A stretch of DNA of 63,667 nucleotides, the filler included, from Rhabdomonas costata (Eukaryota): the NCBI GenBank assembly GCA_019059605.1. It is 34 parts of 34 records of this genome, joined end to end, with 100 filler letters (N's around TTAATTAATTAA, not from the genome) between each part and the next. Parts side by side here need not be neighbours in the genome. Positions count along the whole stretch, not along the records: positions 9,391 to 11,167 come from JAHMHO010009219.1; 33 more parts are not named here. The stretch is one strand, 5' to 3'. A program made the position numbers and the translations under genes. Below, in pieces: positions 2,048 through 56,708 of the stretch (its first letter is position 1; every line of letters begins with the position of its first letter). Under the pieces are notes generated by a model, which worked only from the letters and a program-made list of their open reading frames with translations, made no database searches and was not told the origin of the DNA.

Positions 2048-3395
2048 GGGCACCCTGCTCTCGGGCGTCGTGGTGCTCCTGGCGCTGTTCGCTGTTAGGA
2101 AACGGTTCCCTGTGAACCTTCTGTTGTTGGCGCTGTTCACTGTTCTGGAATCCTGGAGCGTAGGTCCCGTTTTTGTCCACACCTCCTCGCGTTGTTCCAA
2201 AGCCGTACGCGGAGAAATGTGACGGAGTAAAACGAAACCCCTAGGTGATACGCCATGCACCGTCGTTTTTTTTTGGATGAGTAACTTTTTGCGTCGGGGT
2301 CTCGCGTAACGTTCTTTCTTACATACTCGCTCTCGCCGAGCATCGGATGTGAACAGAGGTCTCCAGGTGCACTCTAACTCGCCTCGTCCCGGCCTTTTTT
2401 CTCGGTCTTTTTGAACCTTTCCGAACCCGGCAGCATGAAGAGAAAAATCTTAAATCCATCAGAACATTTAATTCGTCGTCCTAATCCTTTTCTCTCTATG
2501 ATTCTTTTGAAAACAAGAACCCTTTGAAGGCCAACCGACCAGGTATGGAAATATGTTTTTCATCACAACAAAAAACAACAGCAGAGGGAACAAGTGCAAA
2601 GAATTTTTTTAAAAAGAAACACAGGGCACGCATGAGGGCTAGCTGAAGGGCTCTCAACGCAATGAGACAGCCAAGGAAAGAATCACATTTACGAGGGGCG
2701 CGGGGGAAAACGTAGCGCAAGGAGGGATCGATGTCGTGTGGGCTGCAAAAATACAGGGTTTGCATTGTTCACTGCATCGGGAAAGCGTGTTTTTCTTTCT
2801 TTTTTTTTTCTGAAATTTGTTTGCTGTGAACTTGCTGATATTCGTGTTTGGATGTGATAATTCGGTTTCGGTTTGCAAGAACACTTCCGCAGCTTCCGTA
2901 AGGGTCCGAATTGAATTTCGTGTTCGATTGAACCCGTCATGATTTAATGATAGTCCAACTTTGATTTCCACTACCTTGATATGTAGAATGGGAGGGGGTA
3001 AAACAGGCGCGGTCTGTGCTCTGTGTGCGGAGAACCAGGCGGGGCCAGCCGTGGTGGCTGCCGCGGGGATGACAATGGCCATTTTTTTCGCCCTGACCGC
3101 GTTCTGCTTCGTCTCGCGGCGGGACTTTGGCTTCCTCTGGGGCGGCCTGGCCTCCGCGGTTATGCTGCTCGCCGTCTTTGGGGTGTTGATTGCCGTGTTT
3201 CGGTGGCGGCTGTGCTGGCTGTACGCCTTGCTGGGGGCGGTGGTAATCTGCGGGTACATTCTGTTCGACGTCTCCAGGATCCTCCACAGACTCCCGCTCG
3301 ACGAGTACATCCAGGCCTGCGTGGAGCTTTACATGGACCTTCTCAACCTCTTTCTGTTCCTTCTCTTGCTGCTATTGTCCGGGGCCAAGGAGTGA
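2048..3395 (+). CDS. Bax inhibitor-1 / Lifeguard (TMBIM) family membrane protein, 3' part, two exons
   Basis: Exons 2048-2163 and 3007-3395 joined by a GT..AG intron (2164-3006). Spliced product: ..RKRFPVNLLLLALFTVLESWSVGAVCA..RDFGFL..YILFDVSRILHRLPLDEYIQACVELYMDLLNLFLFLL*, the BI-1 family C-terminal signature. Confidence 0.9.
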
Positions 3396-5964
3396 GACCA
3401 TTATAGTTGGGCACAAAAAGGATGTCAGCGAGGAAAGAAAGTATTTGATCCTCGTTCTATTTTTGATGGGAATTGTGAGCATTTTTCAGAGCGGTGGTTA
3501 CTCTCGAGTTTGCGCTGCGCGCGCGCTAGTGAGAACACGAGAGCGAAGGTTCGTTTTGTTCGGGGTGACCATGGGAACGGAGAATGGGTGCTTTTCGGCA
3601 ACTATGGATCCGAGTGAGTCTGCTCCTTTTTTTATTTTCGAAGAGTAGCTTTTNNNNNNNNNNNNNNNNNNNNNNNNNNNNNNNNNNNNNNNNNNNNTTA
3701 ATTAATTAANNNNNNNNNNNNNNNNNNNNNNNNNNNNNNNNNNNNNNNNNNNNTGTGGTGTGGGTGCTGCCTATCACTGCGGTGGCGAATGCTCTCTGAA
3801 ACTGCCGCGGTTTTCCGTGTTAGGCATGCATTACTTGGTTTATGCGGAAGCTTTTCCAAATCCACCATTCATTTGCATCGAGGTTTACCCGAAAAATTCA
3901 GCGAAAGCATCCTTTGTGAAGGCGCGTACATCCCCGCGTGCATCCATCCCCGCCAGCATGTCCGGGCAAGACCACAAGGTTATGACACCTTTCTTTGCAT
4001 ATAGAGAATTTCGGCTGTGCTTTGAATTTGAAATTAAGCATAAAACTGGAGCGAGGCTTTAACTGATCAAGGGAAACCTGACGTCACCTTCGCCTTCGCG
4101 TCCGTGCATCGCCAAGCAATTCCCTTTCTTTTCGGATACCAACATTGCCCTATCGACCCTATCGACCCCATCGAAAAATACCTCGAGACATACATACGCT
4201 CCTCAATTATATGGGTCGCTTCCCACCAAGCCGCTCTGGTTCACGTTGCTTTATTGCATTCGTTTGATCCTCACCTTGAACCTTCGGGGTGGTTTGTAAA
4301 CACACCAACCAAAATGCCAAAACATAATCACCAGAAGCTCAAGACCCTTCTCGAGACATATTCTGCATATGAACAGCCTTGTCCGTCGAAATCTATGAAA
4401 TCTACGGAGCCTTAGGGGCATTACACGATATTTGAATGCATGGCCTGCACAAGTCCGAAAAAAATTTCCTCTGTCCTGGTTTTTAACAGAAAGTGAGAAC
4501 GCCTTTGCTTACGGAGGTGACTGCGAAAACGCCCCTCTGGCAAGGCTGGCTTCTGCGGACCGCTTGAAGGGATGCGTTCGTTGTTGTTTTTGGATGGGCC
4601 CGGTCTCTCTTCGGCGACGAATCCAGGCGCCGGCGTCCTCCCTCCCTTCTATCCGTGAGTTTTCTGTTGTTTTTATTCCACGTTTTCCTTGTCACGCCAC
4701 AGTCTCCTTCTCTCTACTGCCCCCAGCACTGGTTTTTTGTTCACAGTGGCGCTTTGACTTACACGGAGGGAGGCTGGGGGATCCTACCACACCCATCTCT
4801 GGTACTTAACGATCTATCTTGGTGCACCAACACCAACACGGGCGCTACGAGGTATGTGGATGCGTATAATGCAGCAGAGAATTGCACTTGATCGCAAGGA
4901 TTATTAACTTTCCGCTGTTCGCTTAGGAATAGGGACCTCCTCACCTAATCTCAAAAACATTTTAAGTGTTGGTGTGCAACTCATTGGTAGCCCTTTTTCG
5001 AATCTGAATATACAAGTATTTGACTTTGTGTGTCAAAAAACGGTGAAGCAAACATAACATGGAGCCACCTAAGTTTTCTGTTCCCTTCCTGTTCCCGGGC
5101 CACTGGAACCGCAGAGCCGGTGGCACTGTACCTTGTTGAAGGAAGTTGGTGCATTTAACCTTTGTCTTCTTTAACCCGTTGCGCAGGACATCCTTGATGC
5201 ACCGTTTCTGAAGTGTTCCTTTCAAACACCACTCCCGCCATCGCCCGCCAAATAGAAAAGCGTTACGCCAAATAGGTGCAGAAAAAGCGCAAGCGAGGTA
5301 CCCGAGTTCCGTGTTGCAAAGGCTTCGCCACGAAACTTTGACCACGCTACGAAGCGGTGAACACCTGCACGTGGCACCCTTCCAAGTTGCGTTTTTCTAG
5401 CCCTGGCCTTTTTCCCCCCTTGCCATTTTGGCGATTGTTGCCCGGAAACCCGGAAACCAAGACCAAGGGAATCGACCGCTTTTCGGTCCAATCCTAAACA
5501 CGGAATAGGATAAAATCCCCCACACCACANNNNNNNNNNNNNNNNNNNNNNNNNNNNNNNNNNNNNNNNNNNNTTAATTAATTAANNNNNNNNNNNNNNN
5601 NNNNNNNNNNNNNNNNNNNNNNNNNNNNNTTGTTTTGGGCTGTTGCTAAACAAAATCGAAGACTTACGCCATCAAGGCGAAGTAATTCAAAGAAGTGGCC
5701 CGAGTGAGGTGCAGCGGCGACAACTTAGGGTCAGCTGAGCACCTGCTTCCTAAAAATACATAGCAAGGGAGAAAACTGGAAGGGAGGAAGGGGGTCGACA
5801 TGCCCCGCGGTGCTGCTGCTCGGCGGGTAGAGCGGGACAGTGGGTACCCCGGCAACCCCCCACGGCGTAGTTGTTGCGGGTGAGATGGCGGTCCGTGTTG
5901 CCAATGATGCTGCGCACAGAAGTAAGCCAAGGCTGATTTAAATGACGGGCTCCACCGACCCACG

Positions 5965-7043
5965 TTACACACCTTCCGGGACAAGTGCTTTAAAAATCCA
6001 CTGCACTTTTGCAACGCTCATCGAATCCGGTGTACCAGCAACCAAATTTGGCAACCACTCTTCCGAGGAGAAAGCAGTGACCAGAAAAAGGGCATGGGGC
6101 AAGGAATCAAGAACTGGGGAGTCCCAAAATCTCCAACAGAACCCTGAGCTGCTGCAGACGTCTGTGCAGTTTGCCACCAGAATCACGCCACTTAGTTTTT
6201 TGGGGCAAATTTCCCGAACGTTGACATCCAGACCCTTGGCACTGCAATAGAAGCGATCATACTAATCGAAGATCACCAGGTTGGAGACCTCGGTGAGAAT
6301 GTACTGGAAAGAAGGTGAGTCGGGCTGTTTGGGCTTCGGCCACTTCAGCTTGTACCGAGGGTTAAAGTACAGCTCCTGGAAAACAACCACACAATGCTGG
6401 ACACGCTGCCCGCACCTCATAGCTTCCAGCCTCGGTAACGCTCTCACAGCGTACAGGAAATACAGCCCCGTATCAACGTGCACACCATGGTGGTGGTAAC
6501 CCTTCAAAGAAGTAGCACACTAGGCTTTCAGGTGCGGAAAAAAAAACAGAGCCTCCAGGAGCATGAACACTTGCATCAACTCCAGAAGTAAGTCCCACGC
6601 TCCCACAGGTCAGATGATCGGGAATCTCGAACGCAACATATATTCCAGCTTCAAACCTTGCTCCCCACCCCAAACATTATGCGGCATTGCGTCATGTTCA
6701 AAAATTAAGATGCAGAGGTAAGCCGAGCGTCGCAACGGCGGGAGACAAGGCAGTCCAGTCCCCCGCGACACTGAAAGCATCCATATAATTACGACCTCCC
6801 AACTCGGGTTTTCCCATCACACAGAAAAAGAGGCGGACAGAGGGCAGACCCAGTTCCTGGGCAGGGCCAGGGAGGTGCTCTGCACCATGTGCACGTCCGT
6901 CATCCACAGTTGCATGCTGAGATTGAGGTACAGTTGCCCATTCGCTGCGCTTCTCCGCAGGAGGGGCCGCACCGGGGGGTACTGAAAGACAAACCGCTCC
7001 ACCCACTGCACATAGAACGGGGACATCGGGGCCACAGCGGCCT
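5965..7043 (-). CDS. Multi-exon protein-coding gene fragment, product unknown
   Basis: GC-rich exon-like blocks bounded by AG/GT (about 6852-7043 APMSPFYVQWVERFVFQYPP..; about 6289-6501 GYHHHGVHVDTGLYFLY..). No family recognised and the 3' structure is uncertain. Confidence 0.4.
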
Positions 7044-7505
7044 ACGCAGTAGAGGCAAGAGTGTAGAGGGTGTAGAGGCACGAGTATTATGCGCTGCTGG
7101 TGAGGAGCTTTTTTCTTCTCTCGGTAGGCTTTCGAATGTCCTCTGCCTGGAAGCTCCTCAGTTGGAAAGATGTTGCCTTCCATACATATATGAGCGTGCT
7201 CTGAAGAATATGAATATTCCGACGGTTCATTTGATTCTCCAATCTCCCGAAGGGACATGTGCATCACCCTACAACACTGCGATCAACCGTACAAAACTGC
7301 GTTCCGGCGTACCCAACCTGCCCCACCTTCAGCGCAAAACATCCTAAAAAATAATTCTTTTGGAAACACAGAACACACTTGAGAAAAAATTTACCCCCAC
7401 CCCACNNNNNNNNNNNNNNNNNNNNNNNNNNNNNNNNNNNNNNNNNNNNTTAATTAATTAANNNNNNNNNNNNNNNNNNNNNNNNNNNNNNNNNNNNNNN
7501 NNNNN

Positions 7506-7624
<119 letters not shown>

Positions 7625-8620
7625 GCGGACGTCATCCACTCGACGAGTCAAATTTGTGTGGAGAACCCTCATGTAGCATCGTACGAAATATTGTCCCTTC
7701 TTTGAAATACGGATAGGGTTCCAAAAAAAAGACCAGCCATCCCTCACGATGCAGTCAAGGTAATTTCCCAAATGCTTAATTCGCCCATGGTGTGTCTTCA
7801 CGCCTCCGCTGCTGGCTGTGCCAGCGGGTGCAAGCCATCCATCTTGGAGGGGGGAGGGTTGGGAGGGTTGGGTTGGGTCCCATTTACTCCCATTCCAAGC
7901 GGCAGAGGGACGAGATGGGAGTCCACGACTTCCTGCTGCGCGGCGCGGATCAGGACTTTGCCAACCAGTCTCCGAAATACCTCTCGATGTGAGAAGGTTC
8001 TGTTTTTTTGTGTGGCTTTATTTTTTCTTCTCACTTTTCCATCACTTTTTCATCTCTCACATTGCACTTTCCTTGACTTTTGATGCCATTGCTTCCCCTT
8101 GGCCTTGCACTGCAGCTCTTTGTCCCTGTTTATTTCTTTGTGAAAAGCGGAGGAAATACTATGTAAAAAAACTTGTGTCCGATATAATCCAGATAACCAC
8201 CCACCCTGCCGCAATCATTGCCGGGCGGACGCTCATTTAAAAAGCTGTTTGTCTTGTTTTATGAACATGTTTAGCCAGCCAGTAAGTGAAAGCTCTTTGC
8301 GAATGTGTGAAAGAGCCCTCCGAGACTCAAGGGCAAGATAGCTCCGTTCAACCGGGAACGATGTCTCTCAACACCATGCTGTTATAAAAAGGAGCGGGAG
8401 GGCCTATACGAAACTTCAAGTGGGATTTAGTGGGGGACATGTTTCGGCAACGGTTTTGCGTGCCTTTCATGCTTCTCTTCTTTGTTCTGATATATAATTT
8501 GAGAGATGGTTCAGCCCCCCACCCTTGCTTTTGTGCTTTTGTACTTTGTGTATCATTTATGCATAGCGTATTACCATGTTACCTTACTCACACTACATTA
8601 TTAGGTAGTTTGACGTGGGC

Positions 8621-8722
8621 GAGTGTGAGTGTGAGTGTGAGTGTGAGTGTGCGTGTGAGTGTGCGTGTGATTGTGTGTGAGTGTGTGTGAGTGTGATTGT
8701 GAGTGTGAGTGTGAGTGTGTGC
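8621..8722. repeat. Imperfect (GTGTGA)n microsatellite
   Basis: Directly visible tandem GAGTGT units. Confidence 0.9.
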
Positions 8723-8996
8723 GCGTACAGCTGTTGCTGTTGCTTTGGGCAAGCGCATAAGTTCAGGCGTCCATGAAACCGCGGTTCTATTGCCCAACTG
8801 CGTTTTTCTTCGACCCAGCAGAAGAGGAAAGGGCCATTCCCCCAAACCAGTGGGCCACGGCGGCGGGATAATCGAGCAGATACCCGCCGGGCATAAGTTT
8901 GGAAGCAGTGAACCTGCTTCGTTTTCGTTTTCCTTTCTCAGCTCCTTTTCCTGGCTGCTTCCTTCCCTGTCTGTTTGGGTTGTGAGTTCTTGACCC

Positions 8997-9128
8997 ATGG
9001 CGGAGGCTGCCTCGAGGGACTTGGCTGAGGTTCGGAGGCTGCCGTGCGTGGCTGACGCCCAACTCGAGGACCTAGTGGCGAATATTCGGCTGAGCAGTGG
9101 CCGGGAATACTGCGTCGTCCTTGACGAG
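8997..9128 (+). CDS. Probable first exon of an unknown protein (MAEAASRDLAEVRRLPCV..)
   Basis: ATG downstream of a pyrimidine tract, GC-rich codon-like sequence, then an abrupt change to T-rich sequence. Confidence 0.4.
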
Positions 9129-9390
9129 GCCTGTTCCCCTCATGTTTTGCCCTTCACTCTTCCCTCTAAAAATGGTTGGGTTGATACAGATTTCTTTTCG
9201 CTTTTTTTCTGCTCACTATTAGCAACATGATATGATGTGTACTGAACTGTGGCAACATGAGCTGGTTTGCGAATAGTGAGCACACAAAAANNNNNNNNNN
9301 NNNNNNNNNNNNNNNNNNNNNNNNNNNNNNNNNNTTAATTAATTAANNNNNNNNNNNNNNNNNNNNNNNNNNNNNNNNNNNNNNNNNNNN

Positions 9391-9976
9391 TTTTTTGTTG
9401 ATATGTTTTATGTTGTGTTAGTATTGGAAGACTATAATAATCACCAATTGATAAAACATACAATTTATTAGGTAATACATTAACTTCTAATAATTTATTA
9501 AACATATTTCCTATATATAAATATTTAAGTGAATTAGGTAATACATTTGTTTTAATTTGTTGATTAAACATACAGCCTAAATCTAAATAAGTTAACGATG
9601 ATGGTAATATATTTTCTTGTATTTCTTTATTGAATTTATTTCCCAATGTTAATATTCTTAAATTATTTGACATTTTTGGTATTATTAAATTGAAATTAGT
9701 AAAAAGTAATGTATGTGCACTACTATATACATGATCTAATGTTGTTATATTTTCACTTATTTTTACAGTATTATTAATTACACGGTTTTTTATATCATAA
9801 TGATTCACATATACATCTTTATTACATAAATATTTATTATATTTGTATAAATTATAATCTTTTGTATTTTTTTCAATCATATGTATTCTTTTATTTATTA
9901 ATTTTATTTTATTACGATCATATACTCTTAAATATTCTATTATTATTTTTATTGTATCTAAACATAAATAGATCAT
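9391..9976 (-). CDS. F-box-like + FNIP repeat protein, giant-virus type (runs off contig end)
   Basis: N-terminal LCLDTIKIIIEYLRVYDRNKIKLINKR (F-box-like), then about three 22-aa repeats: FNKEIQENILPSSLTYLDLGCM / FNQQIKTNVLPNSLKYLYIGNM / FNKLLEVNVLPNKLYVLSIGDY. These fit the FNIP consensus. Intronless and very AT-rich. Confidence 0.88.
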
Positions 9977-10024
9977 GATTATTAAAATAAATATATAAAA
10001 AATATTTTATTGTCATAGATTGAT

Positions 10025-11167
10025 TTATGGATTTTTTTTGATTTTTTTTTGATAATGTATATATATTTTATGTAATAGAGACGGATTATATTTTCGTTCA
10101 ACACTTTTTATTTGTCTAAGAATTTCATTTTTTGTTAATATATTTGATTTATAAATTGTATCTATATCTTTTTTAAAATTTTTCTGTACATTACTTATGT
10201 AATTTAATAAATAATATATTGCTGAATTTTGTACTATATACGTCTTTTTTGGACCTTCTGTTTCTATAAATCGTATATATTGATCTATTTTACATTGTAT
10301 AATTGAGGTTCTTGATACTTTATTTAGAAAGATATTTAATTCATTTAATAATCTTATGGTTTCATTATGTACATTTTCTATTTTATTTTGATTTAAATAA
10401 TCATAAATAATTTTATATTCAGACACACATTCATAATTGTCATTATAAAACATTAAATGATTTTTCATATCATAACTTTTTTTATAATAATATCGTAATC
10501 TACGACCGAATAAATTAAAAAAATTATTTTGTTCATCATATTGTATAATATCATAATATTTCATATCATAATGTTCTTTATTTTCAGTTTGTTTTTTATA
10601 TTTTCTTTTCATTACAAATAATCGTGTTTCTGAACTTCGTGTTGGTGCATATACCTGTAAATAAATATCTCCTTCTAAATATAAAAAATAATTATTTTCA
10701 TTTATTGGTTTTGATTCATCATTTATAACAAGTTGTGATTTTATATTATCATAATCATATGTCGTTGTTACTTCTATTTTATTTTCAATTATATATGGAA
10801 GTCTGAATTTAAGTAACATAAAATCAGATTTTAATAAAACACCACATTTTTGTTGTAATAGCATATCTTCCATGATCACTTCTTCTTCAGTTGTTATTCG
10901 TATATCACTTATAAATATCACTTTTCTACCATTTGCGATTTGTAATGCTTCATCAACTGTTTCTTCTGTAAAATATTTATGTTTAATTATTACATTTTCT
11001 TTTTCTTTAACTGCAAATTCTGTTTTGTCATAAAGTAAATAAGTTGTTTTAAATAATTCGAATATTTTAGGTAAATGTATACCGGATGCTGCTCCGATAT
11101 AAATTACAATACATTTATCTAATGATACATATTGTGATACTAAAGTTAAATATTCAATTTCTGAAAA
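10025..11167 (-). CDS. Cap-specific mRNA (nucleoside-2'-O-)-methyltransferase, poxvirus VP39 / poly(A) polymerase regulatory subunit family (5'-truncated)
   Basis: The frame stays open from the listed 10921 to the contig edge: FSEIEYLTL..IVIYIGAASGIHL (SAM motif; VP39 VYIGSAPGTH)..VIFISDIR (ISDVR)..LKFRLPY (LKWRCPF)..GDIYLQVYAPTRSSETRL (LQPFAPSYSAEMRL). The D-K-E catalytic positions are present in the expected order. Confidence 0.88.
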   Translation of the reverse strand, partial: FSEIEYLTLVSQYVSLDKCIVIYIGAASGIHLPKIFELFKTTYLLYDKTEFAVKEKENVIIKHKYFTEETVDEALQIANGRKVIFISDIRITTEEEVIMEDMLLQQKCGVLLKSDFMLLKFRLPYIIENKIEVTTTYDYDNIKSQLVINDESKPINENNYFLYLEGDIYLQVYAPTRSSETRLFVMKRKYKKQTENKEHYDMKYYDIIQYDEQNNFFNLFGRRLRYYYKKSYDMKNHLMFYNDNYECVSEYKIIYDYLNQNKIENVHNETIRLLNELNIFLNKVSRTSIIQCKIDQYIRFIETEGPKKTYIVQNSAIYYLLNYISNVQKNFKKDIDTIYKSNILTKNEILRQIKSVERKYNPSLLHKIYIHYQKKIKKNP

Positions 11168-13639
11168 NNNNNNNNNNNNNNNNNNNNNNNNNNNNNNNNN
11201 NNNNNNNNNNNTTAATTAATTAANNNNNNNNNNNNNNNNNNNNNNNNNNNNNNNNNNNNNNNNNNNNTGTGTGGTTTCTTTTTTGCTTGGTTTACTAATT
11301 TCGACAACCAATGACATCAGTAATTCAACCATACAGCACCAGCGTAAATCGCTGTTGTTTCCGCCGTGCGCACCTGGTAGACTATTGTCGTTAGCGTTGA
11401 CCTTGGTGTAGAAGACTCCAAATTGTTGTTCACTCACCCACCAAACCACCACCACCACATTTCACCACAAGTCAAGCACAGCACGTAACAAATAGATACA
11501 CGAACCAACTCAGCCTGTTTACTGTTAACTTTATTCTTTTTCATGTCAAGAAGATTCTCTGCCATCTACTAGCGCTTGTATTACCAAACGTCGTTCTTAT
11601 GGAACCGCGAAGACACCGCATGACCCACCGAACACACAAATGGTGAATTTCGTGAACTGATAAACCCAGAGTCTAGATCTTCTACCAGTGGTAACAAATT
11701 TGTATTTACAGTATCGTGAAAGCGGGCTAAGTTACCTTTTGACCTCTGCCTCCACCACGGGTAATTGGATTCCTCACCCCAACAACGGGCAGTAATGGTA
11801 TTGTGGGATGCAAACCTGTATCGATAGAATGGTAGTGTAAAGTTTTACCTCTGAATAGGGTAACCAGTTCAGCGACACCAAAGACTGTGACTACAGCGTT
11901 TTTTTCCAGTGCTCTTCTTTGAGATTCTCTGCGCATGCTCATTTGTGTTTTTCAGGAACTTCACGCCACTCCTGTACCACACTTAACACCATATATAACA
12001 CCATATATCATCCACCAGTAACTTCCAATAAATGGTCTTTTTACTGTCTCTTCCAGATCCAAATTTCTGTCTAAGCGTGCCTGTTAGCTGACACGCTTTT
12101 GTATACCACGAAAAGACCATAACGCATCGTCCATGCATCGAAGTGTTTGCGCTGGTTGATGTTGTTTTGTGCTTATCCCGAAAAAAGGTTCGCAACTCGC
12201 ATCTTGTGCATCAACTCTGCCTTAAATCCATCAGCCAAATAGCAATGACGTGTTGTAATACCCGCCGCACAAATATGTAAAGAGCTTTTACAAGACACAT
12301 CCAACGAATTGTATTTAGTAGGGTTGCGTTGTGCACTTCCGCTCGCTAGGTTTAAGTTGATTAAGCTTTCTCTTCGGGGGTGATTTTAAAATTTATTGGC
12401 CGCGGACAGAGGCGAGTCATCCCTGATCCGAGGTTCTTACACTGGCGTGCAGGAGATGCTCGATATACGTATCGGGAAATAAACGGGTTGTGTATTTTCT
12501 AAAGACTAATTTAGTGGATTTCTGTTAAATAAAATATGATTCTATGTTTTCCGTTGGACCTTTCATGGAACTAAAATCTTATATTAGTATTTTGTGGACA
12601 CCCATGGGTTTGGTGTATTTTACGGACCCATTGTTTGCCACACAGGACAGTTCATTAGCCCGTTGTGGATCATTTGTTTTTGGAACACTGCAATCCTACA
12701 GACGGAAAGAAAAGAAACAACGGCAGCGCTCCAGAGCAGTCTTTCAAAATGTACACAAAGCTGTACCGTCATCCCATGGAATATACAAGAATGTCGATTT
12801 GACGATGGAAGCCCGGAGTAGACAAATTCAAAGAAGATATCTTATATATAATATTTTTCCGGCGGAAGCAGGCAATTAACGTGGCCCTGGGATCAGACAG
12901 AAGAACTTGCATGAGGTTGTAGTGGTTTATGCGATCATTAGGACCAGGCAGACAAACTTGCAATGTGTCTAATGGTGAGGCACGCGCGCGCGGCCCGAGG
13001 AGGAGCCACATTGCAAGTTTGTCTGCCTGGTCCTAACAACCACANNNNNNNNNNNNNNNNNNNNNNNNNNNNNNNNNNNNNNNNNNNNTTAATTAATTAA
13101 NNNNNNNNNNNNNNNNNNNNNNNNNNNNNNNNNNNNNNNNNNNNTTGTGGGGGTCTATCCGGTCTTTGATGAGGTGCACGCTACTAGAGGGCAAAGGCGA
13201 AACCGGATATCAGGTCATAAAGGACAGGCCGTGCCATTCTGGATATTCCGTGCCAATGACTGCTCGGCTCGGAGAAATGATCTGACACATCGGATCCTAA
13301 GCCTATGGTTCCTGGACTTTATGCACAATCCGGTCCGCAACCAAACTCCAGTGCAACTCATTCTCTTTGTCCATATCGCGTCTCTAAACCTGGGTTTCAA
13401 CGCAGGTCACGGATGGCTCGCCAGAACTGCACACCTGCGGCGAGGAGATTTTGAGGATTATTTCAACTGATCGGACTTCATGATCCTCCGAAACGCTTAC
13501 CTGATCCTCGGTGGAGGACGCATATATCTCTAGCTGTTCCACCAGCTGTTCTAAGACCACTTAACAGGTTCAACTGGTGTGAGCCATAGTCCGCATACAC
13601 AGCGTATCAGAGACATCCCCTTGAGAATGCCATTGCGGC

Positions 13640-26177: not shown

Positions 26178-26281
26178 NNNNNNNNNNNNNNNNNNNNNNN
26201 NNNNNNNNNNNNNNNNNNNNNTTAATTAATTAANNNNNNNNNNNNNNNNNNNNNNNNNNNNNNNNNNNNNNNNNNNNGGTT

Positions 26282-26393
26282 GGGAGCTCGGCGCCTCGGT
26301 GAGCTTTGCCCACCTAAGCCTGCAGGAATTTTTCGCGGCGCACGCCCTGCTGGAACAGCCCAGTCTGCTCTCTGGGCCTCCGTGCAACACCGG
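26282..26393 (+). CDS. Inverted continuation of the NACHT gene (winged-helix motif)
   Basis: ELGASVSFAHLSLQEFFAAHALLEQP matches the NACHT F.H.S.QEF.AA motif but lies on the strand opposite to the rest of the gene. Confidence 0.75.
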
Positions 26394-27930
26394 GGCGCCG
26401 AGCTCCCGAAGCCGCCCCACCCGCAGCGGGGCCTGCCTCAGCATCTCGTCCACAGTCTTCCTCTCTGTCTCCGTCTCAGGCTCGGGCTCTTCAAACAACT
26501 CTCCTGTCGGCGGCGAAGGTGACGACGGAGGGAAGGCAGCGGAAGGGAGAGCCACCAACCCGGCATTGGCGTCCAGTTGGGGCAGGCCTGCACTGCGCTC
26601 TCTGCTCGCACTGCTTCGGAAGCGACGGAGGAAGATCTGCCGCACCACTTTCATCGGCTGGTGCGTCGCCTGCAGCGAGCACAGCAGCACCGCCAGGTCC
26701 TGGCAGGCCTCCAGCCTGGTGGCGGGAGCCGAGAAAGAAGCCTGCAAAGGCGCTGGCAATGAGAAGCTGGAAAACGGAACAGAGGCAGGTGGTGCCGCGT
26801 TTCGTGCTCCGGTAGTGGTGGCGTGGCTGCTGCTGTTCTGCAGAGGCTCCTCCATCAGCAAATGGCGGTATACCTCGCCACGGCTCAGCGCTTGCCGCCG
26901 AGGCTTCTCTAACTCCTTCAGAACCTCCTCCCTCGCTCCGCAAAGCATCGTCGCAAGCGCTGGCGTCCCGATCAGCTCTCGAAGCTCTGGAATCTCCCGC
27001 ACTCGCCTCACAAGAACCTCGGCCAGCTGACAACCCTCCTCCTCGGCAGAATTCTTGGCCCGCTCGTCGTGCTTCCGGACAACCTCCTGGCGCGCGGCCC
27101 GCATCTTTTTCAACACCTCCGGGCAGTCCATATGGGGGTCTTTCTGGCGAACCGCAATCCCAGCGGCAATCATCTCCTTTCCCTCCTCGGCCTGCCGCGG
27201 CTTCAGCTTTTCCTTCGCCAGCACAGGGTCCGTCGCCGCCTCAAATGCAGAGTAACTCAACACCTTATACGCAAGGGCCTCGAAGTCATTCTCCGTGAAG
27301 GGCAGCACCCAGTGCTTCGTGACTTCCACTTCCCTCCCCAGCACCTTGGCGACTGCAACAGAACCGACCCCAACGGCGTCCGGACGAGAGGTCACCACAA
27401 CCCGCCGCAAGGCCTTCCCCACCACCTGATGGAAAAGCCCGACAAGCCCACCCCGCTGGCGCTGCTGCTCCACAGCCTCCCGCACCTTGGGAACCACCTC
27501 GTCCCAGGAGTCCAGGATCAGAACCACACTGCTCTTCTTCGTTTCCTCGAAGTCCGCCTTGCTCACCCCCATCGTCTCCTCAAAGAATTTGGACAGCGCA
27601 GAGGCACTGGACAGGCCCTCGCCCACTATGGGCAGCGATACGAAGATCCCATACACGCCCTTCTCCACGGCCTCCAGAAGCTCGTGGTGGACAAGCAGAG
27701 CTGTGGTGGTCTTGCCCATCCCACCGGAGGACAGTACTATGTCCACGGGCATCTTGCCCTTCCCATCCCAAGCCTTGCCCAAAGCGAGGCCACACAGCTT
27801 CCCCAGGAGCTCGTAGGCCGGCTCGCAGTGCTCCTGGTCGGGGGTGGCCCGCACCGGGATGTGCCTCTGCCGCAGCGGCTCGAACAGGAAGTCCAGCTTG
27901 CGCTGCAGGAACAGCTTCGAGGATAGCCCG
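26394..27930 (-). CDS. NACHT/STAND-class P-loop NTPase (NLR-like), partial
   Basis: Walker A SSGGMGKTT, Walker B VVLILDSWDEV, sensor VVVTSRP, VLPFTEND, GxP motif LIGTPALATML and SRGEVYRHLL. More than 500 codons without an intron. Confidence 0.85.
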
Positions 27931-30900
27931 CGCTGCTCTTCTTCGTTTCCTCGAAGTCCGCCTTGCTCACCCCCATCGTCTCCTCAAAGAATTTGGACAG
28001 CGCAGAGGCACTGGACAGGCCCTCGCCCACTATGGGCAGCGATACCACAACACNNNNNNNNNNNNNNNNNNNNNNNNNNNNNNNNNNNNNNNNNNNNTTA
28101 ATTAATTAANNNNNNNNNNNNNNNNNNNNNNNNNNNNNNNNNNNNNNNNNNNNTGGGGGTCTCTTTCAGGAGAACACCGAGTACTTGAACATGCTGAAAT
28201 GTGCGGTCGCCGACCTTGCGAGGGCGGTGGTGGCAGAGGTAATGTCTTATTTTGTGCATGCCGCTCACCAACAGCGCTCTCTGACTGTTTCTTCTGTTTC
28301 ATAAGCACTCAGAGAAGAGGAGAGAGTTAACCACTGGCGTCGATCGGGGGACATTTAATCATATGCCGTTCGTGACCTTTTCGTCGTGGGCCAGTCGTAA
28401 GTGCAACGGTGATAAAAGCGCTAATTGCAAAGCTCGTCTCACCTTTTGGCGTTCGCGGTGAAGTACCTTTGCAACGGTTTGCCTCCGCCTCCCTCGCTCT
28501 CTCACAGGGATGCGGAGCAGCGGCATTCCACGAGGTTTGTCGTTTGGGATTTTCCTTCCTGTTTTTTTTTGTTGTGTAGGGTTTGTTGGTATGAGCCGTT
28601 TACCTAAAGTCGTGGAAGTCCACAAACGGTGACCTGGTGACCTCAGTTCGAGCTGGCCTTGTTCCAGCAAAGTTACCCCGACCCTTCAGAACAGTCTGCA
28701 GAGCCAAGGACTACAAGGACTCTCAAAAAACAACTGCGAAAATCCTGCGGCAGTTCTTGATATATTTTTGTTTGATAACATCACGTGCACACCTCAACTG
28801 GCCATCTCTAGGATCCGCGTCCTCTGTTGAGGGTCAGTTGAAATGTGTTTTCTGTTAAAAGAGTAAAACAAAGGAACCCCGGGCTCTTTTCACGTCATTT
28901 CTTCGGACAGGTAACACCCCCCCTCCTTTTCTGAATGAGCACATGACAGCTTCAGCTGCTTTTCCTCCTCTTCCACAGAAGCAAAGCATTCTGGAGAAGC
29001 ACCTGTGGAAGTTCTCCGAATGCCACCGAAAGCTTCTTGAAAGGAAAGAGCAGGTGTCGTCTGCTTTTCCTGCGCATATGCGTTCACCAAACCGATCACT
29101 TCGCGAACAAAAGCGATGCGCACAACAACTTAGCACCCCGAAACAATTTTCTGTGAGCGATGAGCACACAGCCGCATCGTTTCTCAGGGCATCCTCCCCA
29201 GCTCCCTTTTTCTGTGGTGGTTGTTCTTTCGTCTCACTCAAGCGTGCACGCGAGGCGAGAAAAAAGAGCAAAGAGGAACCTCAGCGAAACATCATCAGTC
29301 AAAAGAAGGCCAGAAACACTGGGCACTTCTGGGAAGGGGGGACGGGAGGTCGAATGGGTAGACGAGTGGGTTGGGATGTGCTAAAAAGCACGAGGAGCGA
29401 AATCCGGCATGAAAACACACAGTGTGCGTCGGGAAAGTCCAGACAGACACATTTACAAGGGGAAACCGAACCAGGCAGGAGAAGGAGCTCCAACACGGTA
29501 GACAGGAGCTCCAACACGGGAGACAAAAACGGTACTTTTTCTCGCGGGGAGAGAGAGAGACCAGGGAGCAGGCAGCATAGGCTCCGGGTAAGGGAATGGG
29601 AATGGAAATGGAAATGGAAATGGGAATGCAACCGCCTTCTCTCGCGCGTTCCCTACCTGCTTGCTAAGCTCCAGCTTTCGTCTTGTACCTTAATGGTGGA
29701 GCCCGACGCACTGGATTCGCGTGCTGAACTGCGCTGATTTAATGCTTTTTTGGCGTCCAAACTATCCATTTGTCTGGAAGCGTGCCCCGTCACCGCGCAT
29801 CTTGCGATTTGAAGTGGGCCTTGGTGTGGGGCAAGACTGCGTTTTTCAGAAAATTTGCAGGACTCTATCTGGTTTTCAAATGTCCTTTTTGCATCCACTA
29901 TGGGGCGCTGGTGACGGACAACACAACCANNNNNNNNNNNNNNNNNNNNNNNNNNNNNNNNNNNNNNNNNNNNTTAATTAATTAANNNNNNNNNNNNNNN
30001 NNNNNNNNNNNNNNNNNNNNNNNNNNNNNTTTTGGAGAGAGGGTGAGTGCAGTTGACAGGATGAAAGGGGGAGGCAGGGTGCGGTGATGCTGATGACAGG
30101 GTGCTTGGAAACGACGTTAAGGAGGGGGAGGATGCCGAAAAATGCCTGCACAACTGTCTGACTCCATCCTCGGCAGCGTCGGAAAATATCCAGAACGCAG
30201 CACCCCCTCCCTCCCTGCTTCACAGGGATATTTGGGTAGAGCTAATATTTCGTGCTGAACCTCCTGCTGAAGCCACATAACCGTTGGACCAAACATCTAG
30301 TGGTTTGGATTCCTCTGAAAGTGAATGAATGCACCCCAGCTTCCGCGGGGGCGTGTGGGGAAAGCCCCCATGAGGCCCTTTCCGCGGGATGCTACTTTGA
30401 ATGTGAAGTGCTCTGGGTTGAGGCTCATAGGTGCATTTCCGTGGCAGGACTGCGATATTCGGCCCTGCTGCATTGCCCCGTGATCATCATGGGACACCAG
30501 GCAACCTGGCTCCTGCCCCACACCTAAGCACACCATAGGCAATTTCCATGGTCCACAGGAAAAATAAACGTTAAGCAAATGAGAGAACCCCCCTCCCCTC
30601 CAAAAGCCCACTGAAACCCCAAAACTGGGAATTTATTATGTGACATTTACAACACTTGAACTCTTTTCAGCCTGTATCTGTGCCAGTGGTCCTTTGCGGC
30701 TTCCTGTGATGTGCCGTGGGGTCAGTTTTCGGTCTAGCCTGCTTCTCATTATCGTCCACCGTGTCCCATCCATTAGTGTCCACGGAGCAGCCAACAGGGA
30801 AATTTTACACACGAAGTTCATTCACGGCAGGGACACGAAAGCGGTGGAGGGGAGTAACATCAGGAGTGGAAAGTGAGAGATGGGGAGGAAAATGCTCCGG

Positions 30901-54293: not shown

Positions 54294-54529
54294 NNNNNNN
54301 NNNNNNNNNNNNNNNNNNNNNNNNNNNNNNNNNNNNNTTAATTAATTAANNNNNNNNNNNNNNNNNNNNNNNNNNNNNNNNNNNNNNNNNNNNTGGTGGG
54401 ACAGAAGGCTCCCCTACCTTCGATGTGCTGCTGTCCTTCCCAAAGTCAACCAAAATACATTTGCGGTTCCACGAGATCTCAATTGGTGTGCACCAACGAG
54501 AAGAGAGGAGGATGGAGATAAGCGCACAC

Positions 54530-54869: not shown

Positions 54870-56708
54870 TTGTCAAAAAGAAAAATGAAGGATAAAGACC
54901 GGTCCCTGTAAAAAGCGGACAAACAATGATCTGGTGTATTTTTTATTGCGATCGGAAATAGGCACAACAAAAAAAACAACTTATGCACTGTCCCAGTCAC
55001 CCAAACCAAGAGAGAGAACGGGGATGCGACGGTCCAAACCGATCTTCCAAAAAAAAAAAAACGAATCCCCCTATTAAAAAAAGGCGACAAATTCCTCACG
55101 GAAACCAAAGAAGACACCAGGCTGGCTGGTGCTGTACGGACCTTGCAACAATTCCGTTCACAAATAGCAGAGATGTCAGATCAAAAACTGTCTAAATGAT
55201 TTGAATTTCTTTCTGGGAAAAAGTTGCGGCCCAAGGCCCTCAAAAAACCACACCCGCCACAACCAATTAGGTTTGTTTTTGCGTTCGCTCACGTTTTTAC
55301 AAACGCAACGAGACTGAAAGCCATGGATAGCGAGTGAGTGGGGAGTTTTTCCAAAAAAAAAAAGCGCATGGCCTCAGCTTTGTCGAAGGTAGTTCACTTG
55401 AGGACAGCTTTAGGTGGATAGCTGGGTCAAGGTTCCCTGCAAACGCGAGCCCCATAACGCAGCGACAGCAACCCAGCAGTGCCACGGATGAAAACTCTGA
55501 AAAGAGGACTTTGGGATGGAAGGAATCTGGGAACAACACGTTGCACTCCTCCGCTCGCGTGACAAATAACGCTCACAGAGATTGTCACCATTGGGTGCAG
55601 TGAACAGGGATGGGGGGACGGACCGCCGCATGGAGCTCAGCGCCGTCAGCAGAGGGGAATGCCGCCGAAGAAAAAGGCATCGCATCCCTCCCATGCGAGA
55701 ATACGAGAATAAGCAGTACAGAAACACTTTGTGAGGGCTCCACTGGGTGCCGGAGGGTGGAGAGTGCTCATTTCACCAGTCCGGCCCAGAACCAGAATCT
55801 TCCATGGCTGGGTGCCCACAAGTGGGTGTGGATTTCGACCGAGAGGGCTGGCGGATATGAATGAAGGCCCACCTTGCGCCGTGCCTGAGACGAACAGCTT
55901 GATGAAAATGGTCAAAACGCTTCGCGCTGTCCGTGTCACATTCAAAAGTTGGTGAACACCTTTCCCTGTGGGAGCAGTCACAAAATAGAACCATTCCAAC
56001 TCAAGGAGTATGAAGCACCACAAAAATGAAAACAAACGCATTAGGCACATGATAGGCACCTCCCTAAAATATCACAACAACCCCCCGATGAGCACTCTCA
56101 GCAAAAAGAGTGCCTCGATTGGGGGGGGGGGCAATGAGATCCACAAAAACCCCAACCACACCCAACACNNNNNNNNNNNNNNNNNNNNNNNNNNNNNNNN
56201 NNNNNNNNNNNNTTAATTAATTAANNNNNNNNNNNNNNNNNNNNNNNNNNNNNNNNNNNNNNNNNNNNGGGTGGGGTGTTGCCCTGGCTGAGGAGCGAAG
56301 AGGAATAGAGGTGCCGTTTCTCGGTCGCCTGGCACGCCTTCTCTATGTAGGTTTTCTATGTGCATTCTGTATGCGATTGTGGGTTGTGGGCTGTGCGGCA
56401 CCGGTTTTTGGTGCGGGGCATCAGGTCGCTGAAACTCAACTTCATATGCGAAGATATATGCCCAGAACGGCATCCCACGTACTTATCTCACCCCTTGTAT
56501 TCAGCTGCGGTTCGAGCTGGCAAGCGACGGATATCTACTGTCGCAAACGTTTCACTGCTCCGAAGTCTTCGCTACCAACTCAAACCGACGGACGCACCCG
56601 TGAGTACGACTCCCCAGCAAACACGACCGAAAGATACAAGCATCCGCCGAGCGGCAGATGGGTCTGTCACCATAACCCAAACAAAACCAACCCCGCCTGG
56701 GAAAGCAC

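Follow-up and report, generated by a model that had tools for sequence, protein, structure and literature searches.

Contig 6, the sixth of the 34 contigs in the stretch of DNA analysed here, most likely comes from the genome of an uncultured giant virus (Nucleocytoviricota) that is very rich in adenine and thymine (AT-rich), a reading to which we assign a probability of about 0.8. Judged by its relatives, this virus probably belongs to the Imitervirales, the relatives of mimivirus. The contig occupies positions 9391-11167 (1777 base pairs (bp), 19.5% guanine plus cytosine (GC), 97% coding) and carries two partial open reading frames (ORFs), of which ORF1 is a predicted mRNA cap methyltransferase of the VP39 family and ORF2 a predicted FNIP repeat protein. 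The whole stretch, called the window below, is 63,667 bases long. It consists of 34 contigs of 1762-1785 bp each, joined by 33 spacers that are runs of N around TTAATTAATTAA (1778-1877, 3654-3753 and onward). Because the window is made of joined contigs and is not one molecule, any feature that crosses a spacer is an artefact.

Composition and gene layout of contig 6

The composition of contig 6 is foreign to the other 33 contigs. Its GC content of 19.5% (80.5% AT) compares with 41.5-63.0% across the others, a gap of more than 20 points to every one of them, and its GC content at third codon positions (GC3) is about 8%. It is also the only one of the 34 contigs to match a set of 18 viral loci in a tblastx comparison (E<=1e-4), with 114 high-scoring segment pairs.

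The contig consists of two ORFs on the minus strand, both of them cut by the contig edges. ORF1 (10025-11167, protein P0001) has 380 codons running from 11167 to 10028, followed by a TAA stop at 10025-10027, and its 5' end is off the contig. ORF2 (9392-9976, protein P0002) has 195 codons starting from an ATG at 9974-9976, and its 3' end is off the contig. Between the stop of ORF1 and the start of ORF2 there is an intergenic spacer of 48 nucleotides (nt) on the same strand, at 9977-10024. Both reading frames are continuous to the contig edge, with no intron over 575 codons. An initial annotation of this DNA had described a contig of about 80% AT among balanced or GC-rich ones, bearing two intronless ORFs on the same strand 48 nt apart, and on both counts it was accurate.

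The lengths of the two ORFs are far beyond chance. At the composition of contig 6 the probability of a stop is 0.107 per codon, so that stops are expected every 9-10 codons, and the probability of meeting no stop is 2e-19 for ORF1 and 3e-10 for ORF2. When the contig was shuffled 500 times, the longest ORF had a mean length of 66 codons and a maximum of 132.

ORF1, a predicted VP39-family cap methyltransferase

By family, profile and modelled fold, ORF1 is a VP39-family S-adenosylmethionine (SAM)-dependent cap ribose 2'-O-methyltransferase, the activity itself being predicted. The family had been named in the initial annotation, and a search with the Pfam hidden Markov model (HMM) bears it out: PF01358 matches residues 2-281 of ORF1 with an E-value of 8e-9 and 35.2 bits (cut-off 25.4), covering model positions 40-290 of 292. 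In NCBIfam no match was found for ORF1 or ORF2. Searched as a single sequence with phmmer, ORF1 found no PDB chain. An alignment of ORF1 with 28 relatives (29 sequences, referred to here as A1) was used for the profile, the structural model and the motif scans, and the A1 profile matches VP39 of vaccinia and monkeypox viruses at an E-value of 9.5e-25.

The AlphaFold (AF2) model of ORF1 built on A1 has a predicted local distance difference test (pLDDT) score of 87.9 and a predicted template modelling (TM) score of 0.87. A Foldseek search with this model gave VP39 chains of monkeypox and vaccinia viruses as the top PDB matches (E about 1e-13, TM score on the target 0.70-0.75). The model superimposes on VP39 with a root-mean-square deviation (rmsd) of 2.8-5.3 Å over about 295 columns, at 18-19% identity.

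The residues expected of such an enzyme can be followed through the alignment. D88 (in SDIR), K120 (in LKFR) and E180 (in SSETRL) of ORF1 align to D138, K175 and E207 of VP39 and are invariant in the 29 sequences. The column of VP39 K41 (GQxKLL) falls three residues beyond the contig edge, so that the K-D-K-E tetrad is readable for three of its four members. The SAM motif of ORF1, YIGAASGIH (residues 23-31), corresponds to YIGSAPGTH in VP39, and Y23, G25 and G29 are again invariant in the 29 sequences. For cap binding, the residues reported for VP39 are Y22, F180, D182 and E233 (PMC4402537). Counting columns by hand places Y125 of ORF1 at F180 and D211 at E233, with the position of Y22 off the contig and no unambiguous counterpart to D182. 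Beyond the Pfam domain, ORF1 has a C-terminal extension of about 100 residues (approximately 290-380) with four predicted helices, which is common to its closest relatives.

It is worth adding that in several relatives the methyltransferase domain lies inside a longer ORF of 736-1300 residues (L006, 7745-11215; L008, 1717-5616; L014, 6824-10117; L007, 8840-11212; L011, 8906-11113; L015, 753-3152). In L006 the domain comes after a DEAD/DEAH helicase core, and in L008, L011 and L014 it is preceded by 330-900 residues without a Pfam family. Because the N-terminus of ORF1 is off the contig, ORF1 may likewise be part of a fusion.

Relatives of ORF1

A search of 5.8 billion proteins with ORF1 gave 118 matches. 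The best of these, at 37-43% identity, are all unnamed metagenome proteins, and none of the 10 clusters of best matches carries an informative name. Seven matches are named as eukaryotic and are much weaker, namely Arcella (3e-13), Naegleria (5.5e-9), Brachionus (3e-4) and four EukProt transcripts (4e-11 to 4e-6). A single-sequence scan of IMG/VR found no close relatives of ORF1. The motif scan of IMG/VR with A1 found 15 loci, 10 of them named GVMAG, with GC contents of 17-28%, and a scan of metagenome contigs found 75 loci with a median GC content of 22.7%, 65 of the 75 being below 30%; the two sets are in part the same contigs (for example, L001 = L020).

In a maximum-likelihood tree of 132 rows, ORF1 falls in a clade of 58 rows with a support of 98 in the Shimodaira-Hasegawa-like approximate likelihood ratio test (SH-aLRT). 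Of the 13 IMG/VR rows 12 belong to this clade, and the seven eukaryote-named rows all fall outside it. The proposal in the initial annotation that contig 6 is giant-virus DNA is well supported, the clade of ORF1 being found on giant-virus contigs and bins. A fold search of BFVD points the same way: its top eight matches are all giant-virus proteins annotated as cap-specific mRNA 2'-O-methyltransferase, at 21-26% identity. Five of them are Pithovirus entries (four LCPAC metagenome-assembled genomes (MAGs) and Pithovirus sibericum), and the others are Mimivirus LCMiAC01, Tupanvirus and Barrevirus.

The records that hold relatives of ORF1 also hold giant-virus hallmark genes. The capsid model PF04451 was above its cut-off in all four giant-virus bins searched (those with L001, L004, L006 and L013), with 2-8 matches each, and in none of three single contigs, each estimated to be 7-11% complete. 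PolB was found in two of five records, VLTF3 in two of five and A32 in one of five; among the bins searched these counts become two of two for PolB and for VLTF3 and one of two for A32. The A32 match shares a 128.9-kb contig with the methyltransferase relative L013. The hallmark searches left out L005, L007, L009 and L014.

The closest IMG/VR relative of ORF1, at 38% identity, is on L001, a contig of an IMG/VR bin. Its gene order (3235-11317) is a TFIIS-type zinc ribbon, poly(A) polymerase, a 201-codon ORF, RNase III, the methyltransferase, a 182-codon ORF and an SNF2 helicase. The methyltransferase comes directly after RNase III, and the poly(A) polymerase, which is of the mimivirus type (PF21649 and PF19244), lies two ORFs further upstream of the RNase III-methyltransferase pair. 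Poly(A) polymerase and RNase III as a pair are described as the mimivirid cluster for mRNA 3'-end maturation (PMC4402537). In L005 the neighbours are an IF-2-like GTPase, a GT41 glycosyltransferase, a RING protein and a mitochondrial-carrier protein.

When prokaryotes were scanned with one genome per species (185,579 species), a single weak match to ORF1 appeared, at 28% identity over 137 residues and on a MAG contig. This match (L095 / L094) lies on a 30.8-kb contig titled Candidatus Omnitrophota MAG, which also belongs to the metagenome set (45% GC) and is possibly a mis-binned viral or eukaryotic contig.

ORF2, a predicted FNIP repeat protein

ORF2 is, from its sequence and its modelled structure, a leucine-rich-repeat protein of the FNIP/FGxxFN kind. 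The FNIP repeats proposed in the initial annotation were recovered by the HMM, PF05725 matching in two stretches with an E-value of 2e-22 and 79.3 bits (cut-off 21). The 22-residue repeats are encoded at 9422-9679 on the minus strand (residues ~100-185) and read LRILTLGNKFNKEIQENILPSS, LTYLDLGCMFNQQIKTNVLPNS and LKYLYIGNMFNKLLEVNVLPNK, followed by the start of a fourth. They have a period of 22, an FN core and NVLP or NILP endings, with L or I in place of the F of 'FG' throughout. The published consensus is LxxLxFGxxFNQxIxENVLPxx, also of 22 residues (PMC9525666).

Among PDB entries, phmmer matched ORF2 to two proteins of Cafeteria roenbergensis virus (CroV), Crov588 (E 1e-139, summed over repeats) and Crov539 (E 2e-18). 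The model of ORF2 has a pLDDT of 73 overall and 92-97 over residues 101-180, where it forms a solenoid with one strand per repeat. Foldseek aligned it to Crov588 with an E-value of 6e-7 and an rmsd of 1.0 Å over 97 columns, at 44-45% identity.

The N-terminal part of ORF2, of about 95 residues, matches no recognised family, and when it was compared with 175 FNIP proteins there was one borderline match only (phmmer E 0.002, 12 bits). The initial annotation had placed an F-box (PF00646 / PF12937) in ORF2, and none was found by any of the approaches used. Pfam gave no F-box match at E<=1 for the whole ORF or at E<=10 for residues 1-60, and none in 12 scanned relatives of ORF2, which include a Cotonvirus protein named 'F-box and FNIP'. 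In the structural search the sole F-box-LRR match was MAX2, which is not significant (E 0.87, probability 0.10), and the N-terminal helices are modelled at a pLDDT of only 58-79.

FNIP proteins number 5387 representatives at E<=1e-3. The use of FNIP as a viral marker was considered and rejected as non-discriminating: the initial annotation had taken the repeats to point to a virus, and named Dictyostelium proteins are no worse as matches to ORF2 than the one named mimivirid.

Origin of contig 6

There are a number of points that weigh against a giant-virus origin. No giant-virus hallmark gene is present on the 1777 bp, and the viral call rests on the relatives of one gene, ORF1, the closest of which are only 37-43% identical to it. 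The clustering of viral loci with ORF1 is partly built in, because these loci were fished with motifs of its own clade. The approximately unbiased (AU) test favours the viral reading, since forcing ORF1 together with six of the eukaryote-named rows cost 185.7 log-likelihood units (p = 5e-7), but the group for this test was chosen after the tree had been seen. A hallmark gene on the same contig as the methyltransferase was seen for L013 only (A32), and the bins may hold stray contigs. The neighbourhood with poly(A) polymerase and RNase III was found on one distinct contig (L001 = L020) among the 15 IMG/VR and 75 metagenome loci, and because it is one distinct contig only, we do not claim a cluster of poly(A) polymerase, RNase III and methyltransferase as a rule.

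Further points of this kind come from ORF2 and from the intergenic spacer. Relatives of ORF2 were found in none of four records with methyltransferase relatives when the Pfam model was used and in none of five with a protein query, these empty results being weak evidence, and there was no FNIP gene near the methyltransferase in the flanks of any of the 15 IMG/VR or 75 metagenome loci. No public record carrying the two genes together turned up. The IMG/VR records with a relative of ORF2 are only three (L016-L018; 339-733 kb, 30% GC, one of them classed as a provirus). One 10.8-kb stretch bearing FNIP genes is identical in all three. They gave no match to the capsid model PF04451 or to a VP39-like methyltransferase, and may represent either a giant virus with a divergent capsid or eukaryotic DNA that was filed among the viruses. 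Among the 20 'longer' matches of ORF2 are three Dictyostelium species (33-47% identity) and one named mimivirid, with 68.6 bits for D. firmibasis (residues 16-181) and 49.7 bits for Cotonvirus; taken alone, the sequence of ORF2 fits Dictyostelium and a virus equally well. The mimivirus early-promoter motif is the octamer AAAATTGA, which is absent from contig 6, including the 48-nt spacer. A hairpin in the same spacer is not significant (z -0.83, with 38 of 200 shuffles folding equally well), and the inverted repeats on contig 6 are AT-rich and weak. The lack of octamer and hairpin says little, since it concerns a single spacer only.

What counts among these sequences is the makeup of the ORF1 clade, in which giant-virus contigs are present and no named eukaryote is. 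The initial annotation had called the contig 'Mimiviridae-like'. This stands as probable by way of the relatives, namely the MutS_V matches described below, the poly(A) polymerase of L001 and the CroV-like repeats of ORF2, but it is not shown on contig 6 itself. MutS_V was above its cut-off in all four bins, a count that is to be read as MutS proteins generally, PF00488 not separating MutS7 from the others; MutS7 has been described as the one protein unique to Mimiviridae (PMC6163669). ORF1 does not settle the order, because its top BFVD matches are a mixture of Pithovirus-labelled and mimivirid entries.

The matches of ORF2 bear directly on the possibility that contig 6 is nuclear DNA of an AT-rich eukaryote owning both genes, for example a dictyostelid or other amoebozoan that was present as prey or contaminant. 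FNIP is abundant in Dictyostelium, with 557 sequences by HMM search (PMC9525666), D. firmibasis outscores the named mimivirid as noted above, and the 'LP' at the end of the ORF2 repeats is reported for both Dictyostelium and CroV (PMC9525666). VP39-family proteins also occur in eukaryotes, including the amoebozoan Arcella. ORF1 tells against such an origin, since there is no Dictyostelium protein among its 118 matches although the database does contain Dictyostelium, and since its clade holds none of the seven eukaryote-named rows and the AU test rejects its union with six of them. The 48-nt spacer, the 97% coding and the 575 intron-free codons are virus-like, and the GC3 is extreme; in dictyostelids, genes lie much farther apart and exons have a GC content closer to 27%. 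We regard a source of this kind as quite unlikely. Close packing of genes and a very low GC content would also suit the reduced genome of an endosymbiont, or more generally an AT-rich bacterium or archaeon. A prokaryotic source is close to refuted: the scan of 185,579 species gave a single weak relative of the methyltransferase, NCBIfam matched neither ORF, and both families have been recorded in eukaryotes and in eukaryotic viruses.

A different matter is whether contig 6, although derived from a virus, was integrated in the nuclear genome of the host as a giant endogenous viral element, and so does not come from a free or replicating virus. Protists commonly harbour such elements, Euglena gracilis among them (PMC12455990), and a junction with host DNA would not be visible in contig 6, because both of its ends lie inside viral ORFs. 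On the other side, contig 6 stands more than 20 points of GC below every other contig, its GC3 is about 8%, and neither ORF is interrupted over its 380 or 195 codons, although a stop would be expected every 9-10 codons. An integrated copy would have to be very recent, because of these intact ORFs and this GC gap, whereas the elements in Euglena are reported as eroded and belong to a different order, the Asfuvirales (PMC12455990). We therefore consider integration unlikely, and retain a giant virus as the source of contig 6. Possible routes by which its DNA may have come to lie among the other contigs include infection, a particle that was eaten, an attached particle, recent integration and contamination. 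In particular, it is very unlikely that the other contigs come from a cell of a euglenid or another euglenozoan in the course of active infection by this virus.

For contig 6 as viral DNA, the following scheme is proposed. The DNA would have been present in the amplification reaction that gave the other contigs, and would carry two tightly packed, intact genes. By homology, ORF1 would use SAM and a K-D-K-E site to add a methyl group to the 2'-OH of the ribose in the first nucleotide or nucleotides transcribed, on capped mRNA that the virus produces in a cytoplasmic factory. Adenosines in poly(A) tails may be further substrates of ORF1, as they are of the Megavirus protein Mg18. The cap position at which ORF1 acts may be 1, 2 or 3, because Mg18 and the medusavirus and kinetoplastid relatives differ in position. 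The solenoid of ORF2 would presumably act as a protein-binding scaffold for host or viral targets.

Contig ends

Contig 6 starts with a 10-mer that consists of G and T only, TTTTTTGTTG (9391-9400 on the plus strand), which underlies the last 3-4 codons of ORF2 as read. The chance of a G/T-only 10-mer at a given position of contig 6 is about 0.003. A G/T-only start of at least 7 bases is found in 28 of the 34 contigs, the commonest length being 10, as in contig 6. At the other end, 24 of the 34 contigs have a C/A-only run of at least 7 bases, and that of contig 6 is just 4 nt (AAAA) and not distinctive. The claim of the initial annotation that contig 6 shares the G/T and C/A end signature of the host contigs is thus borne out for its start but not for its end. 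Other examples of such G/T-only or C/A-only ends, which span 7-28 bases, are at 3754-3766, 54394-54400 and 56141-56168.

Degenerate primers made only of G and T are used in whole-genome amplification, and the runs at the contig ends are probably remnants of such a primer and not viral sequence. If this is right, contig 6 and the other contigs share one amplification chemistry, as the G/T 10-mer implies, and the final few codons of ORF2, which overlie the 10-mer, may be primer. Most contig ends should not be taken as genomic sequence. The start of contig 5 (7506-7530) is a microsatellite of the hexamer TGTGTA; its G/T-rich start is a repeat, and not a primer remnant alone.

The other contigs

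Rfam gave no match anywhere in the window. Twenty ORFs of 170-568 residues from the other contigs were searched against Pfam and none reached the cut-off. Four matches below threshold were seen on three of these ORFs. The ORF on contig 15 (63% GC; 26280-27983, minus strand, 568 residues) matched NACHT with 20.8 bits against a cut-off of 26.7. An atlas search with this ORF returned only bacterial clusters of STAND/NACHT NTPases, and contig 15 could be a bacterial contaminant or could carry a eukaryotic gene resembling nucleotide-binding leucine-rich-repeat receptors (NLR-like). The ORF on contig 22 (39538-40326, plus strand) matched both F-box-like (20 bits against a cut-off of 24.3) and F-box, and that on contig 31 (56928-57533, minus strand) matched MFS_1 (21.3 bits against 33.4). 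For a 398-residue ORF on contig 21 the atlas search returned nothing. The low coding density of the other contigs suggests a eukaryote.

Implications

Contig 6 correctly flags foreign, virus-like DNA, which should be binned apart from the host before any claim is made about gene content or horizontal transfer. If the assembly holds more of the virus and the cell is identified, this would provide a natural virus-host link, of a kind that is scarce for giant viruses. Taken alone, the 1.8-kb fragment, whose two gene families are common in giant viruses, extends a large uncultured clade by one divergent sequence and brings no new biology. It is mildly useful for the study of mRNA maturation in giant viruses, in view of the conserved helical C-terminal extension of this methyltransferase clade and of the one relative whose methyltransferase lies in a poly(A) polymerase gene cluster, directly after RNase III.

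The consequences would be larger in the very unlikely event that the other contigs come from an infected euglenid. A replicating giant virus would then be linked to a euglenid for the first time, and Euglenozoa would have only their second giant-virus system, the other being Bodo saltans virus. The new virus would belong to a lineage with a VP39-like methyltransferase at most 43% identical to anything in 5.8 billion public proteins. It would also bear on the proposed viral origin of the host VP39-like enzymes that build the hypermethylated cap 4.

Comparison with known systems

The best comparison for ORF1 within the mimivirids is Mg18 of Megavirus chilensis. This VP39 homologue 2'-O-methylates the first nucleotide of capped RNA and also methylates internal positions of poly(A) tails, and it binds the viral poly(A) polymerase but does not serve as its processivity factor (PMC4402537). 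No other mimivirid homologue is known to have been studied. Like Mg18, ORF1 is a predicted VP39-family enzyme, here of a probable AT-rich giant virus and with D, K and E of the K-D-K-E tetrad readable, and its relative in L001 lies near RNase III and poly(A) polymerase. They differ in that the nearest BFVD entries from cultured megamimivirines (Tupanvirus and Megavirus courdo11) are only 23-25% identical to ORF1, and in the helical C-terminal extension of about 100 residues in the ORF1 clade.

Poxvirus VP39 acts both as a 2'-O-methyltransferase and as the processivity subunit of poly(A) polymerase. ORF1 is predicted to have the same fold, and shares the SAM motif and the D, K and E residues, but it is 18-19% identical and has the additional helical C-terminal region, and the positions of K41 and Y22 are off the contig. 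A role for ORF1 in poly(A) processivity is not expected, because Mg18 lacks it.

Further parallels are provided by a medusavirus relative that methylates cap position 3 and by the kinetoplastid proteins TbMTr2 and TbMTr3, which are described as VP39-like and act at positions 2 and 3 (PMC13393146). These resemble ORF1 as VP39-related cap ribose methyltransferases, and come from a giant virus and from Euglenozoa. None of the 118 matches of ORF1 is a kinetoplastid or medusavirus protein.

For ORF2, the closest structural parallels are Crov588 and Crov539 of CroV (PDB 6nyr and 7zal), with which it shares the 22-residue repeats, the xGxxFN core, the asparagine and the NVLP ending. ORF2 differs in having L or I for the F of 'FG', and in having about four repeats before the contig ends. 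The function of the FGxxFN family is given as unknown even in CroV (PMC9525666). The mimivirid 'F-box and FNIP' proteins, represented by that of Cotonvirus japonicus (P0299), have FNIP repeats that match ORF2 with an E-value of 7e-8 and 35% identity over 127 residues, and Pfam finds an F-box neither in ORF2 nor in its Cotonvirus namesake.

Among euglenozoan viruses, the system for comparison is Bodo saltans virus, a cultured mimivirid of a kinetoplastid (PMC8061765). The initial annotation knew of no other cultured euglenozoan giant virus, in agreement with a 2021 review that gives it as the only documented DNA virus of Euglenozoa (PMC8061765). Endogenous Asfuvirales elements in Euglena gracilis were described later, and these are eroded insertions (PMC12455990). 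Giant-virus DNA in single or sorted protist cells is well documented (PMC6789865, PMC6792449, PMC12644861, PMC10327091, 10.64898/2026.10.11.758280), and for contig 6 the comparison with these viruses rests on 1.8 kb. The presence of giant-virus DNA among protist contigs is a familiar kind of find, to which contig 6 is a divergent addition.

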